Below, in pieces: positions 1-2,216 of a DNA stretch of 2,216 nucleotides (positions are counted from its first letter, which is position 1; every line of letters starts with the position of its first letter). The position numbers and the translations under genes are program-made. Under the pieces are notes generated by a model. It was not told the origin of the DNA. It did not search any database and saw only the letters and a list, made by a program, of their open reading frames with translations. The stretch is from Dictyostelium discoideum (lineage: Eukaryota). Location: positions 1 through 2,216 of the forward strand of contig CH709150.1 of the NCBI GenBank assembly GCA_000004695.1, written 5' to 3'.

Positions 1-171
1 TGAATTGGTATTAGATGAGAACATAGGTTCTTTCATGAATCTTGTAAAGGCTAAGGAAATGTTGTTGATTTGATCCTCCATTGATTTCATTCTTAAATCA
101 AAGGATTCAGCACTATTAGAGGCAGAGGTACTACTACTAGAGGCTTCATTATTATTAACAGTGGTAGACAT
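1..171 (-). CDS. 5' partial CDS (N-terminal 57 codons) of an Asn/Ser-rich hypothetical protein. It continues beyond the window start.
   Basis: Reverse complement of 1-171 reads ATG TCT ACC ACT GTT AAT AAT AAT GAA GCC ..., i.e. MSTTVNNNEASSSSTSASNSAESFDLRMKSMEDQINNISLAFTRFMKEPMFSSNTNS, with no stop. An in-frame TAA lies two codons upstream of the ATG (RC of 175-177), so this is the first Met. The context is A-rich (aaaatATGt). Third-position A/T codon bias fits an AT-rich eukaryote. The ORF track misses it because it runs off the window edge. Confidence 0.5.
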   Translation of the reverse strand, partial: MSTTVNNNEASSSSTSASNSAESFDLRMKSMEDQINNISLAFTRFMKEPMFSSNTNS

Positions 172-288: not shown

Positions 289-390
289 GGAATTCCCAAA
301 TAAAATAAATCAAATTTTTTTAGTTTTTAGTGCCACTATTTATACGTTTTTATTTTCTTAAAAATTTCGCAAAACTCAAAAAAATAAGAG

Positions 391-492
391 TTTTCGACCC
401 TTCACAACTTTGTGCATAGTGTCGGTTCGGAATTTTTCAGTTTTTCGACCTTGCGCAATGATCGCGTCATTGTGCCGGTTCGAAATTTTTAC
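391..492 (+). repeat. Two tandem ~50-bp CpG-rich subrepeats inside TIR-L, with ~70% mutual identity.
   Basis: Unit 1 (391-440) is ttttcgacccttcacaactttgtgcatagtgtcggttcggaatttttcag. Unit 2 (441-492) is tttttcgaccttgcgcaatgatcgcgtcattgtgccggttcgaaatttttac. They share the tttcgacc and gtg.cggttcg.aattttt blocks. Each contains GGTTCG(A/G)A, which resembles the tRNA B-box GGTTCGANTCC in 8 of 11 positions. About 12 CpGs fall in 130 bp, against almost none elsewhere in the AT-rich DNA. Confidence 0.7.
453..475 (+). other. Hairpin-forming palindrome in subrepeat unit 2, with a 9-bp stem (including one G-T/U wobble) and a 5-nt loop.
   Basis: gcgcaatga-tcgcg-tcattgtgc. Pairs are g453-c475, c454-g474, g455-t473, c456-g472, a457-t471, a458-t470, t459-a469, g460-c468 and a461-t467. 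Confidence 0.5.
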
Positions 493-516
493 TTTTCTTT
501 CGAAAATTTTTTATTC

Positions 517-537
517 TTCGAATGTTATAGAACATTC
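517..537. promoter_or_regulatory. Heat-shock-element-like array in TIR-L: GAAnnTTannGAAnnTTC, four contiguous pentamer units of which three are perfect.
   Basis: ttcGAAtgTTataGAAcaTTC. GAA at 520-522, TTa at 525-527, GAA at 530-532 and TTC at 535-537, all at exact 5-bp phasing. It also forms a 7-bp inverted repeat gaatgtt/aacattc. Confidence 0.5.
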
Positions 538-581
538 TAAAAAATTATCTTAAATATTTGGGAAATTCAAATAAATAAATG

Positions 582-932
582 TTATTCATAATATATATAT
601 ATATATGATAATATAAATACGTTTGATAGTGGATAAGTGCTTGAATACTTGATTTGCATCCCATATCTCAACCTACCAGTCATAATTCTTGTAATGAATA
701 GATCATTAACAATATCAGTTTGATTCCTAAGGAGTAACAACTGATTCAACATAGAGCGATTACCGTTTATTGTGGAGAAGGCTAACGGAGGTTTGTGCTT
801 GAACAGATGTGTAAGATAATCCATGAAAACAACTAAAGTAATGTTTGCTGGATTCAAAGAGTTCAAAGTTTGGTCAATACTTCTTGGAATGTTTCCAGTA
901 TTTGAGGAAACATGTGACGATGATAACGACCT
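582..932 (-). CDS. Hypothetical open reading frame of 116 sense codons with no ATG at its 5' end (first Met at codon ~36). Possibly cargo, or a pseudogene fragment.
   Basis: The minus-strand frame is open from the TAA (RC of 933-935) to the TAA (RC of 582-584). It reads RSLSSSHVSSNTGNIPRSIDQTLNSLNPANITLVVFMDYLTHLFKHKPPLAFSTINGNRSMLNQLLLLRNQTDIVNDLFITRIMTGRLRYGMQIKYSSTYPLSNVFILSYIYIYYE. The 'M' in the ORF track at 864-866 is actually a TTG (Leu). GC is ~35-40% and CTG/CCG/CGC/GGG/AGG/CTC codons appear, which differs from the flanking gene usage. The last 7 codons only read through the (AT)n tract. Confidence 0.3.
   Translation of the reverse strand, partial: RSLSSSHVSSNTGNIPRSIDQTLNSLNPANITLVVFMDYLTHLFKHKPPLAFSTINGNRSMLNQLLLLRNQTDIVNDLFITRIMTGRLRYGMQIKYSSTYPLSNVFILSYIYIYYE
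595..617 (+). repeat. Direct repeat copy 1: atatatatatatgataatataaa. This is the inner-end motif of TIR-L.
   Basis: Identical 23-mer at 1140-1162. Both are followed by a[t/a][a/g]cg. Confidence 0.8.
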
Positions 933-1045
933 TTAAAATCACCTTAAAAATCACCTTAAAAATTGCTTAAAAATTTAATTTAAAGAAAATTTTAAAGGCA
1001 TTTTTAAATATCTTAAAAATTACCTTAAAAATTACCTTAAAAATG
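929..1045. repeat. Degenerate 12-bp minisatellite (A/G)(C/T)CTTAAAAAT(C/T), about 7 copies in two blocks, immediately upstream (on the minus strand) of the 582-932 ORF.
   Basis: acctttaaaatc 929-940, accttaaaaatc 941-952, accttaaaaatt 953-964, gcttaaaaattt 965-976, then a 33-bp spacer, then atcttaaaaatt 1010-1021, accttaaaaatt 1022-1033 and accttaaaaatg 1034-1045. Confidence 0.8.
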
Positions 1046-1057
1046 AATTTTTTAAAC

Positions 1058-1118
1058 GCGGCTTTAAATTCAATTTAAATCCAATTTAAATAAACTTTGC
1101 TTTAAATTTGCTTTAAAG
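1058..1118. repeat. Second short-repeat cluster with a TTTAAA core: (g/t)gctttaaa(t/g) x3 and caatttaaat x2.
   Basis: ggctttaaatt 1060-1070, caatttaaat 1071-1080, ccaatttaaat 1081-1091, ttgctttaaat 1097-1107 and ttgctttaaag 1108-1118. Confidence 0.7.
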
Positions 1119-1139
1119 GTGGATTTTTCTTTGCTGTGA

Positions 1140-1162
1140 ATATATATATATGATAATATAAA
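1140..1162 (+). repeat. Direct repeat copy 2: atatatatatatgataatataaa, internal to the element.
   Basis: Exact match to 595-617. Together the two copies bracket module A (619-1139). Confidence 0.8.
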
Positions 1163-1171
1163 AGCGATTAG

Positions 1172-1197
1172 CCTAGGAGATCTAGAAGTGTTTAAAC
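1172..1197. other. Cluster of overlapping 6- and 8-cutter palindromes resembling a cloning linker: AvrII CCTAGG, BglII AGATCT, XbaI TCTAGA, PmeI GTTTAAAC.
   Basis: cctagg 1172-1177, agatct 1178-1183, tctaga 1181-1186 and gtttaaac 1190-1197, all read directly. The cluster sits exactly at the junction between direct-repeat copy 2 and module B. Confidence 0.6.
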
Positions 1198-1780
1198 TTA
1201 TTGGCTGGGTTACTTTATTGATCGGCATCCCCTTTATTATATTCAATAAACAACTACAAAAATTAACCCATTGTTCCGAATAAGTCCATGGGAAGAACTC
1301 ATTTATTACTTGCTTAGACTAAGCCTGCTTATAGAGTATAGGATTTGGCTTGTTGTCTGATCATTATGGGGAAATAACCATTGGCGCTCTATCTGCACCG
1401 CTTATGGGAAGCACCCTATTTTGAGTACTTTTCGACCTACTTCCATCAGACATTGGCATAACCTTATGTGTATCTGTACCAACTAAATCTATCGCTATCG
1501 AAGTTATGTTTGAATTTGATGCGGGTCCAAATTGACCTCCAAACTCCGCAACAGGTAGCGTCAATTCCTACCCCCCTATCAGGATGCTAGGCAGCTTATT
1601 AACCCCAGAACAGAAAAAATCATGAAGGATAACCGAGCGATCCCATACCAGTAGGTTTTGGGCACCACATTCAATGCAAATTGGAGTATAATCGACCTGC
1701 TATTTGTGAAGGCCCCAACGCTTTTCATATTATAAAAAAATCTTACGTTTCTCCCTCAGATGCTAAAGTGAAGCCATAAA
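1198..1780. other. Module B, a ~580-bp non-coding island of roughly 40-50% GC. Candidate structured ncRNA or decayed foreign cargo.
   Basis: Stops are dense in all six frames; the longest ORF is 66 aa on the minus strand. GC was spot-counted at 37% for 1301-1360 and 50% for 1541-1600, against <20% in the flanks. No 3-nt periodicity or internal repeats were recognised. No rRNA, 5S, U6 or tRNA cloverleaf motif was recognised. Confidence 0.35.
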
Positions 1781-1878
1781 TTAAAAATTTAATTTATTAT
1801 ATTAAATATATATATATATATATATTATGAATAACATTTATTTATTAGAATTTCCCAAATATATAAGATAATTTTTTA

Positions 1879-1896
1879 GAATGTTCTAAAACATTC
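1879..1896. promoter_or_regulatory. Heat-shock-element-like array in TIR-R: GAAnnTTCnnaAAnnTTC.
   Basis: GAAtgTTCtaaaacaTTC. GAA at 1879-1881, TTC at 1884-1886, aAA at 1889-1891 and TTC at 1894-1896. This is the mirror copy of the TIR-L site. Confidence 0.5.
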
Positions 1897-1934
1897 GAAG
1901 AAAAAAAAAATTTCGAAAGAAAAGTAAAAAATTT

Positions 1935-1942
1935 CCACGTGG
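1935..1942. promoter_or_regulatory. CCACGTGG palindrome (CACGTG E-/G-box core) within the unique central block of TIR-R. It can pair with downstream ccaagtgg as a hairpin.
   Basis: ccacgtgg(ggcgataattatg)ccaagtgg has 7/8 complementary arms. This 45-bp unit replaces the two subrepeats present in TIR-L. Confidence 0.3.
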
Positions 1943-2057
1943 GGCGATAATTATGCCAAGTGGCAAAAACAGTTTTGTGAAATTTTTAAGAAAATAAAAA
2001 AAATAAAAATAGTGGCACTAAAAACTAAAACAATTTGATATATGGAATTCCAACTAT

Positions 2058-2073
2058 GGGCGGGTGGGATGGG
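2058..2073 (+). other. Canonical G-quadruplex motif GGG-C-GGG-T-GGG-AT-GGG, 7 bp outside the right terminus of the element.
   Basis: gggcgggtgggatggg has four G3 runs with loops of 1, 1 and 2 nt. It is extremely unusual in >80% AT surroundings. Confidence 0.8.
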
Positions 2074-2126
2074 ACTAATATATATAAATTTTTAATATGA
2101 AATATAATTTAATAAATTTTTAATCT

Positions 2127-2155
2127 ATTTTATCATATATATATATATTATGAAA
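2127..2155 (-). repeat. Extra inverted copy of the TIR inner-end motif (ttcataat(at)n gataa) located outside the element in the right flank.
   Basis: 2127-2155 is ttttatcatatatatatatattatgaa. Its reverse complement, ttcataatatatatatatatgataaaa, matches 585-613 (ttcataatatatatatatatatgataatat). It is also a direct repeat of atatatatatattatgaa inside TIR-R (1813-1832). Confidence 0.6.
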
Positions 2156-2216
2156 TTTGGACTACAGTATTTAAGAAACCACCAGATTTTTCACCAATGA
2201 TTCTTTTATCGTAGAA
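2148..2216 (-). CDS. Possible 3' end (last 22 codons plus TAA stop) of a minus-strand gene that enters from beyond the window end.
   Basis: RC of 2151-2216 reads TTC TAC GAT AAA AGA ATC ATT GGT GAA AAA TCT GGT GGT TTC TTA AAT ACT GTA GTC CAA ATT TCA, then TAA (RC of 2148-2150). This is FYDKRIIGEKSGGFLNTVVQIS*. Codon choice (GGT, AGA, TTA) matches the left-flank gene. The open stretch is only 22 codons, so evidence is weak. Confidence 0.3.
   Translation of the reverse strand, partial: FYDKRIIGEKSGGFLNTVVQIS

Follow-up and report, generated by a model that had tools for sequence, protein, structure and literature searches.

What is a GC-rich island with no intact gene doing among the AT-rich repeats of a social amoeba? 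The question is raised by a 2,216-nt stretch of Dictyostelium discoideum DNA (GenBank assembly GCA_000004695.1, contig CH709150.1, positions 1 to 2,216 of the forward strand), referred to here as the window, in which an initial annotation made from the letters alone had described positions 1198–1780 as non-coding cargo inside an element with terminal inverted repeats (TIRs). We found that the island contains the remnants of two adjacent bacterial protein genes, the 3′ tail of a POT/PTR2-type peptide transporter and a decayed wbqC-like gene, and that it is bounded on both sides by pieces of the retrotransposon DIRS-1. It is very probably a fragment of about 0.6 kb from the chromosome of a bacterium of the Candidatus Amoebophilus lineage that was integrated into the nuclear genome of the amoeba, has decayed there and is non-functional. 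Amoebophilaceae (order Cytophagales) are obligate intracellular symbionts of amoebae.

The raised GC content of the region is real, since 100-nt windows across 1198–1780 ranged from 0.32 to 0.47, the elevation extended from about 1150 to 1750, and positions 1164–1775 contained 40.5% GC compared to 25.1% in the remainder of the window. The borders, however, were located at 1161/1164 on the left and 1775/1783 on the right, and not at 1198 and 1780 as first proposed. The accompanying statement that the flanks have less than 20% GC applied only to the immediate AT-rich junctions, whereas other parts of the window (the inverted arms and 622–929) reached 33–40%; DIRS-1 coding DNA outside the window also has about 40% GC. 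As annotated, all six frames of the island are interrupted by stops, the longest open reading frame (ORF) is 66 aa (1364–1564, minus strand), and the C-rich tract cctacccccct occupies exactly 1567–1577. The description of the island as non-coding was right in that there is no intact ORF, but it missed a strong residual protein-coding signal on the plus strand.

A distant blastn search of 1160–1800 against plasmids, Escherichia coli genomes and phages gave only chance matches of 25–31 nt. When IMG/VR was scanned for exact occurrences of a 31-mer from the island and of a motif from the DIRS-1 inverted terminal repeats (ITRs), there were zero matches, as in an NCBIfam scan of the frames, and exact-protein look-ups of five island ORFs, and also of the segment labelled module A, returned no record. 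A word-indexed search of 5.8 billion proteins with a stitched island peptide had no match at E ≤ 10, and thus no intact paralogue was found. Reading the frames in the ciliate genetic code was also tried and rejected, because they were still interrupted by TGA and had no protein match; the flanks, moreover, belong to the DIRS-1 of Dictyostelium.

The identity of the island was indicated by a Pfam six-frame scan with stops masked, in which the WbqC-like family PF08889 was matched in two plus-strand frames at consecutive profile positions, with 22.8 and 13.6 bits relative to a gathering threshold of 21.3 bits. Frame-corrected peptides scored 45.6–46.9 bits against PF08889. Because this correction was made with knowledge of the family, we wrote a frameshift-tolerant profile-to-DNA aligner and compared its scores with those of 150 dinucleotide shuffles, taking the better strand of each. 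With a profile built from 120 family members, the plus strand scored 31.5 bits and the minus strand 15.8 bits, whereas the shuffles scored 14.6 ± 1.7 bits with a maximum of 20.4. A scan of GTDB species genomes with the degenerate motif K-A-P-Y-F-E-Y-F yielded 36 loci, almost all from Cytophagales and including two metagenome-assembled genomes (MAGs) of Amoebophilaceae. With a profile of this Cytophagales subfamily (proteins of about 205 aa), the frameshift-aware score rose to 107 bits (82 bits when the motif used for retrieval was masked), and profile positions 79–206 aligned to nt 1367–1743 without large gaps. The WbqC signal was clear only when frameshift-aware alignment was combined with the correct subfamily: the 120-member, Bacteroidota-type hidden Markov model gave weak whole-frame hmmsearch scores, and tblastn was noisy. 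The hallmark motifs, as judged against the motif spectra of the 120 family members (Y-x-K-A-P-Y/F-F ... L-S-I-I/L-D-L-L-F), are present in order as AYGK(A)PYFEYF at about 1400–1431 and NWSIIDLL(F)C at about 1679–1708.

Only the C-terminal part of the gene remains. An uninterrupted WbqC ORF of about 200–230 aa with its N-terminal half is absent, and what is present is a pseudogene fragment. A profile of the first 60–80 or so positions scored 9.1 bits in 1164–1366 compared to a shuffle mean of 12.2, and a colinear N-terminal statistic was reached by 633 of 1000 shuffles. The string of restriction sites at the left end of the island together with the peptide FKLIGWV had been considered as the WbqC N-terminus, and this was rejected because there was no N-terminal signal and the stretch proved to be the tail of the upstream transporter. 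The wbqC remnant ends only a few codons short of its natural stop, close to the right border of the island. It contains two in-frame stops, each derivable from CAA or CAG by a single C-to-T change, and three 1-nt frameshifts, all of which sit in short homopolymer runs. Because the transporter is represented only by its tail and the wbqC remnant carries these lesions, no functional protein can be encoded.

The left part of the island was identified by tblastx, in which window positions 1161–1289 matched the C-terminal tail of a protein other than WbqC, with 51–67% identity over 36–43 aa to tails in six independent bacterial contigs (L010, L042, L043, L044, L067 and L101). Relatives closer than L010 were obtained from a metagenome scan for which the WbqC alignment served as the seed. 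The window reads G-D-L-E-V-F-K-L-I-G-W-V-T-L-L-I-G-I-P-F-I-I-F-N-K-Q-L-Q-K-L-T-H-C-S-E-stop, and L042 reads G-D-L-A-V-F-Q-L-I-F-W-I-C-V-I-V-G-L-P-F-I-I-F-N-K-K-L-M-K-L-I-H-G-A-E-stop; the position of the stop is identical in the window and in Amoebophilus. In all six contigs the transporter gene is followed by wbqC in the same order and on the same strand; for example, in the Amoebophilaceae MAG L010 the matching tail belongs to a 452-aa ORF directly upstream of wbqC. In L042 the transporter is a PTR2/MFS_1 protein (POT/PTR2 at 214 bits) and the wbqC-like ORF scores 128 bits against PF08889. The tail in the island has no PF00854 match in the Pfam scan, being too short and too C-terminal to score. 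The distance from the transporter stop to a conserved WbqC Trp is 83 nt in the window, compared to 347 nt in L042 and 429 nt in L010. Therefore, about 270–350 nt, comprising the spacer and the first 60–70 wbqC codons, have been deleted.

The relatives point to a donor among the Amoebophilaceae. By exact-sequence look-up, the ClpC and transporter proteins of L042 are those of Candidatus Amoebophilus sp. 36-38 (the latter recorded as 'MFS transporter [Candidatus Amoebophilus sp. 36-38]'), and the L043 transporter clusters at ≥90% identity with Aasi_0463 of A. asiaticus 5a2. In frameshift-aware pairwise alignment, the WbqC remnant was identical to L043 and L044 at 68 of 132 positions (52%) and to L042 and L010 at 60 of 128 (47%), and the Amoebophilus homologues are 60–75% identical among themselves. 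In a neighbor-joining tree, the remnant (labelled modB) joined L042–L044 as its closest relatives, with a bootstrap value of 178/200. The GC content of the island, 40.5–42.8%, falls inside the 34–45% range of the donor lineage; the remnant itself has 42.8%, compared to 34–37% for the Amoebophilus homologues and 42–44% for other Amoebophilaceae. It has been reported that D. discoideum hosts a dictyostelid-specific Amoebophilus clade whose 16S sequence is 6% diverged from that of A. asiaticus (PMC8518690), and a donor of this kind is thus plausible. Of the origins that the initial annotation had entertained, foreign DNA, to be checked against endosymbiont genomes, is the one supported, in the form of a syntenic two-gene fragment of the Amoebophilus lineage.

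It was also seen that the intact wbqC-like ORFs in L042 (about 2760–3400), L043 (about 2760–3400) and L044 (about 230–860) have no in-frame ATG near the 5′ end and seem to start at a non-ATG codon just before '...TLLIDL...'; the gene may be under-annotated in these genomes.

The island is also present in a second D. discoideum assembly. A search of the 66-aa antisense ORF against 1.84 billion representative proteins gave a single match (91% identity), KAM9950948.1, 'hypothetical protein ACTFIT_005029, partial [Dictyostelium discoideum]', encoded on contig L122 of GCA_054883475.1. This contig and window positions 929–2216 are 98.9% identical over 1288 nt, and the left and right junctions of the island are the same. 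Within the island there were only two differences: an A/T substitution at position 1261, and a C-run that is C6 in the window but C5 in L122. The two stops are common to both sequences, as are frameshifts 1 and 3, whereas frameshift 2 is absent with C5. The 'C7-like tract' of the initial annotation is therefore a homopolymer that differs in length between assemblies, either through a real slippage polymorphism or through a homopolymer sequencing error in one of them. The recurrence of the same decay and the same junctions is a strong argument against contamination or a chimeric contig. Other Dictyostelium loci that were fetched contained no further Amoebophilus-like DNA.

A comparison of the two assemblies gave 2 differences per 612 nt in the island and 9 events per 676 nt in the flanking DIRS-1 and repeat DNA, a small apparent difference; the lower divergence of the island could come from gene conversion among DIRS copies and not from constraint. 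The ACTFIT_005029 model (L122 2123–4985) is a chimera in which the two initial exons, both of them antisense ORFs from the bacterial remnant (MKSVGAFTNSRSIILQFALN and LTLPVAEFGG...MSDG), are spliced onto retrotransposon-like coding sequence with a C-terminal part that, by reading only, resembles reverse transcriptase (...GAPVIFAKKKNGKWRMFIDYRSLNE...). This gene model is almost certainly an annotation artefact.

The DNA outside the island was compared by blastn, in 50-nt bins, with about 92 kb of D. discoideum DIRS-cluster loci. It was found that the bins outside 1151–1775 had 1–16 matches each, whereas those inside had none, and therefore the island is not part of DIRS-1. The minus-strand ORF at 622–929 had 24 homologues (59–92% identity, all hypothetical proteins, several per contig) in Dictyostelium discoideum, D. 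cf. discoideum and D. dimigraforme. The loci of these homologues encode RVT_1, RT_RNaseH_2 and Phage_integrase ORFs, which identify the element as the tyrosine-recombinase retrotransposon DIRS-1, and the flanks match these loci at 75–93%. A Pfam six-frame scan of module A and of the repeat array found nothing, the identity having come from the Dictyostelium homologues. The features of the window are collected in Table 1.

Table 1. Features of the 2,216-nt window, in order of position.
Feature	Positions	Strand	Evidence
DIRS-1 ORF1 (gag-like) 5′ end, start codon 170–168; copy Y, continues left beyond the window	1–170	-	blastn
Left ITR of DIRS-1 copy Y; outer terminus about 619, inner end GGAATTCC (289–296)	290–619	-	8–16 blastn matches per 50 nt; inverted repeat with 1810–2043
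DIRS-1 tyrosine-recombinase ORF fragment (N-terminal part), cut at 622 by insertion of copy Y	622–929	-	homologues
Array of ~12-nt repeats (accttaaaaatc-type), recurrent in DIRS clusters	930–1139		70–82% matches in the longer arrays of L003, L004 and L122
24-nt DIRS-1 ITR outer tip (atatatatatatgataatataaa), left border of island	1140–1163	-	equals 595–618; 100% to ITR tips in L001 and L003
POT/PTR2 peptide-transporter 3′ tail, ~40 uninterrupted codons, TAA at 1281–1283	1161–1283	+	tblastx
Remaining spacer and wbqC 5′ third after ~300-nt deletion	1284–1366	+	no significant alignment
WbqC-like (PF08889) pseudogene, C-terminal ~130 codons	1367–1761	+	Pfam; frameshift-aware alignment; 68/132 identities to Amoebophilus homologues
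Frameshift 1, 1 nt lost (gggaag/cacc; aag-gca-ccc expected)	1406–1412	+	also in second assembly
In-frame TAA; Gln (CAA-type) in homologues	1459–1461	+	also in second assembly
Frameshift 2, C6 homopolymer ('C7-like tract')	1571–1576	+	C5 in second assembly keeps frame
In-frame TAG; Gln in homologues (Y-Q-Q-V-F-G)	1652–1654	+	also in second assembly
Frameshift 3, one T lost at about 1703 (ctatttgtg; cta-ttt-tgt expected, L-F-C)	1697–1708	+	also in second assembly
Right ITR of DIRS-1 copy X with AT-rich terminal extension (1776–1809); right border of island at 1776	1776–2050	-	12–16 blastn matches per 50 nt
DIRS-1 region between recombinase stop and right ITR; ITR-tip complement at 2123–2148	2051–2149	-	inverted repeats, blastn
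3′ end of copy X tyrosine-recombinase ORF (...FLNTVVQIS-stop)	2150–2216	-	translation; L002 Phage_integrase ORF 10421–10936

The individual pieces were located in the DIRS clusters. Positions 1–619 aligned at 91–93% to L002 1600–976, L002 12814–13430 and L001 8106–8739, and the counterpart of the ORF1 start in L002 is a 326-aa ORF preceding the RVT_1 and Phage_integrase ORFs. Positions 622–929 matched L002 4323–4501 and 10090–10363, directly upstream of Phage_integrase ORFs, and on the right side 1777–1935 matched L002 13461–13297 and 1851–2216 matched L002 11262–10868. Right DIRS-1 ITRs have been described as bearing a 27-bp extension (PMC4482531).

All of the DIRS-1 pieces (both ITRs, the ORF1 start and both recombinase pieces) share one reading direction. 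The inverted arms (63–124 nt, 83–95% identity, flanking about 1.2 kb), which had been taken for the ends of a single TIR element with the island as its central cargo, are the ends of two different DIRS-1 copies: the left arm runs on leftwards into ORF1, and the right arm runs on rightwards into the recombinase ORF. Because the arms are ITRs of two copies in the same orientation, the island is not enclosed cargo. It lies outside both elements, between the right ITR of copy X and the left ITR of copy Y, which are arranged head to tail. Each ITR drives transcription into its own element, in sense from the left one and in antisense from the right one (PMC4482531), and with the orientation found here both promoters point away from the island.

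Several further features of the repeats were observed. The ITR tip atatatatatatgataatataaa occurs three times, at 595–618, where the left ITR ends, as a solitary copy at 1140–1163 and inverted at 2123–2148; the inverted copy, which lies between the right ITR and the end of the recombinase ORF, probably represents the internal complementary region of DIRS-1. The sequence GGAATTCC, which holds an EcoRI site, is the inner end of both ITRs (289–296 and 2045–2052). The two ITRs are not collinear mid-way, the left having 115 nt (368–482) where the right has 47 nt (1934–1980). The left insert contains two direct repeats of about 51 nt (391–407 and 442–458), each with palindromic cores (cacaactttgtg and ttgcgcaa) between tttcgacc and ggttcgaaa, and the middle of the right ITR contains ccacgtgg and gccacttggc; these palindromic motifs may be regulatory sites of the ITR promoters. 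Units of about 12 nt (accttaaaaatc / taccttaaaaat) adjoin recombinase-ORF fragments in several DIRS clusters (L003 7537–7728, 9735–9924 and 17095–17322; L004 3120–4013; L122 2923–3501), with much longer arrays in L122 and L004, and the array has the appearance of a satellite or of part of a DIRS-1 deletion derivative.

Parts of the window have an engineered look. The 35 nt to the left of 1198 (cctagg-agatct-aga...gtttaaac) resemble a polylinker, with AvrII, BglII, XbaI and PmeI sites at 1171–1198, and EcoRI sites stand at the ends of the arms. The codons of this stretch are S-L-G-D-L-E-V-F-K-L, and they align to ...M-G-D-L-A-V-F-Q-L of the bacterial transporters, so that the site cluster is natural bacterial coding sequence, just as the EcoRI sites are ITR sequence. 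An engineered construct, such as one from restriction-enzyme-mediated integration (REMI) or an ITR knock-down vector, was rejected because the ITRs face outward with their own ORFs and the site string is homologous coding DNA. Synthetic filler, another origin that had been suggested, is contradicted by the same homology and by the presence of the insert in the second assembly.

How such a fragment came to lie between two retrotransposons can be outlined. DNA of a lysed intracellular symbiont would have reached the nucleus and been joined into a chromosome, for example by end-joining at a break, and later DIRS-1 insertions into or beside it would have left about 0.6 kb between element termini. 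A short fragment might instead have been captured as filler at a DIRS-1 junction. As for a function of its own, the fragment most likely has none today.

A number of points weigh against an integrated Amoebophilus-lineage fragment and have to be set beside the evidence above. The end state is what was observed, and we infer the mechanism of integration from it. The two assemblies apparently belong to one assembly series, having similar accession numbers, and their independence at the pipeline level is not proven. The placement of the remnant comes from 128 aligned columns and a distance tree, in which the wider Amoebophilaceae-type clade has a bootstrap value of only 91/200. DNA identity to the Amoebophilus homologues is only 54–58%, and no sampled bacterium is close. 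There was also no excess of GC-to-AT changes at bacterially conserved sites (13 of 61 GC sites changed compared to 28 of 148 AT sites), which, together with a GC content above that of extant Amoebophilus, is not what one expects of neutral DNA that is old and resides in an AT-biased genome. The 42.8% GC of the remnant, the missing GC-to-AT excess and the low DNA identity are the grounds on which we consider the donor to be probably an unsampled, somewhat GC-richer member of the Amoebophilus lineage.

An alternative history is that the wbqC-like gene was domesticated by Dictyostelium, was expressed for a time and became a pseudogene after invasion by DIRS-1. The extension of the remnant nearly to its natural stop would fit such a history, and the D. 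discoideum genome paper reportedly describes bacterial genes that this amoeba has acquired. However, the fragment starts in the middle of the transporter gene and keeps the intergenic arrangement of the donor, as a random genomic piece would and a gene-sized acquisition would not. It also has neither a host-type promoter nor an intron, its codon usage is not AT-shifted and its GC still resembles that of the donor lineage, and the word search gave no intact paralogue. Domestication is therefore quite unlikely.

By analogy with viral elements in piRNA clusters, it might be proposed that the fragment is transcribed by read-through from the neighbouring DIRS-1 copy and feeds 21-nt small RNAs, and so would serve as a heritable 'memory' of Amoebophilus-type symbionts; given the orientation of the ITR promoters and the 54–58% identity to known symbionts, we regard this as very improbable. 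A weaker form of the idea would see in the fragment only the fossil of a long-carried, unsampled, GC-richer Amoebophilaceae symbiont in the D. discoideum lineage. The related proposal of an exapted silencing template, in which the fragment, embedded in DIRS-1 heterochromatin that generates siRNAs (small interfering RNAs), would yield small RNAs against symbiont transcripts, draws on the report that DIRS-1 ITRs are strong promoters and that inserts between opposing ITRs yield siRNAs of about 21 nt (PMC4482531), and on the lower divergence of the island than of its flanks between assemblies. That divergence difference is the small one given above, and the ITRs face away, so that the island does not lie between convergent ITR promoters. 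At 54–58% identity to known Amoebophilus DNA, the fragment is too divergent for targeting by siRNAs, and RNA interference against a vacuolar or cytosolic bacterium has no established route. A silencing template would thus be a highly improbable role.

The possibility of an assembly artefact, in which reads from live Amoebophilus were mis-joined to DIRS-1 repeats, deserves mention because Amoebophilus is frequent in D. discoideum isolates, repeat-rich regions are easily mis-assembled, and all three frameshifts lie in homopolymer runs, as sequencing errors would. A chimera is nevertheless hardly credible for a piece of only about 0.6 kb that has exact DIRS-1 termini on both sides, two Gln-to-stop substitutions and an internal deletion of about 300 nt, and that recurs with its junctions and lesions in the second assembly; in addition, no other Amoebophilus-like DNA was found in the fetched Dictyostelium loci.

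The leading idea of the initial annotation was that the island is a gene for a structured non-coding RNA (ncRNA) carried as cargo by a TIR transposon. It had also reported no recognisable rRNA, 5S, U6 or tRNA signature, and this agrees with our searches: the Rfam search that it had asked for, run at E ≤ 10, gave four weak sub-threshold matches in the window and none inside the island, and ARAGORN found no tRNA. The minimum free energy (MFE) of 1164–1775, another check that it had proposed, was indistinguishable from that of dinucleotide shuffles (z = +0.87 on the plus strand and +1.29 on the minus strand), and sliding 150-nt windows gave folding z values of −1.67 to +1.35. The idea thus fails on grounds that its own author had named, such as a folding energy no different from shuffled sequence. 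The one other copy found differs at 2 positions, and the bacterial homologues are protein-coding. Although the missing intact ORF and the GC above the surroundings would suit an RNA gene, an ncRNA cargo is scarcely conceivable given these negative results, a sequence fully explained by two decayed bacterial protein genes, and 'TIRs' that come from two different DIRS-1 copies.

The conclusion that remains, an integrated and decayed fragment from the Amoebophilus lineage, would mean that symbiont DNA of this type has passed into the nuclear genome of a model social amoeba and remained there, a concrete and datable event. If confirmed across strains, it would provide an age marker for the association of Dictyostelium with Amoebophilaceae. 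It also points to a donor lineage that has not yet been sampled, shows DIRS-1 clusters to be a graveyard of foreign DNA, and flags an annotation error in ACTFIT_005029 (KAM9950948.1). The biological impact is modest because the piece is small and almost certainly non-functional. In a full-text search of the literature, we found papers on Amoebophilus in D. discoideum and none on nuclear integration of Amoebophilus DNA.

Compared with systems already described, the window outside the island equals the nested, truncated DIRS-1 pieces of the centromeric DIRS-1 clusters (PMC4482531, PMC3950715, PMC7192593), and the island is what sets it apart from the roughly 92 kb of such DNA examined. It has two inverted arms, as do DNA transposons with TIRs that carry cargo; unlike these, the arms come from two copies of a retrotransposon, a transposase is lacking, a target-site duplication was neither sought nor seen, and between the arms lies a mosaic of DIRS sequence and a bacterial piece. 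The pDM_lITR_BglII/SpeI_rITR cassette (PMC4482531) is superficially alike, with a foreign fragment of 400–700 bp between a left and a right ITR and an adjacent BglII site. In that cassette, however, the ITRs are bare and their promoters point inward, whereas the ITRs of the window face outward and are joined to their own ORF1 and recombinase ORFs; the window also has extra DIRS fragments, its BglII/AvrII/PmeI string is homologous bacterial coding sequence, and its arrangement recurs in a genome assembly of another strain.

With the Candidatus Amoebophilus locus, which consists of the transporter (Aasi_0463; OJW67239.1 in A. sp. 36-38), the wbqC-like gene and clpC (OJW67241.1), the island shares both adjacent genes, their order and strand and the transporter stop, at 51–67% identity in the tail and 47–52% in WbqC. 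It differs in having only the last 40 or so transporter codons, in lacking clpC, the spacer and about 60–70 wbqC codons, in its stops and frameshifts, and in being 5–8 GC points richer than the Amoebophilus homologues.

Nuclear transfers from Wolbachia to insect and other arthropod hosts and to nematodes are well known, and nuclear insertions of mitochondrial and plastid DNA (NUMTs and NUPTs) are analogous. The island differs from the Wolbachia insertions in that the host is an amoebozoan and the donor a member of the Amoebophilaceae (Bacteroidota), and in that it is only about 0.6 kb long, has been trimmed by retrotransposon termini and has no close extant donor genome available. As in those insertions, a fragment from an intracellular bacterium lies in the nuclear DNA of its host, in repeat-rich chromatin, with the gene order of the donor kept, with stops and indels, and mostly without function. 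By this analogy, the island would be the amoebozoan counterpart of the nuclear Wolbachia insertions.

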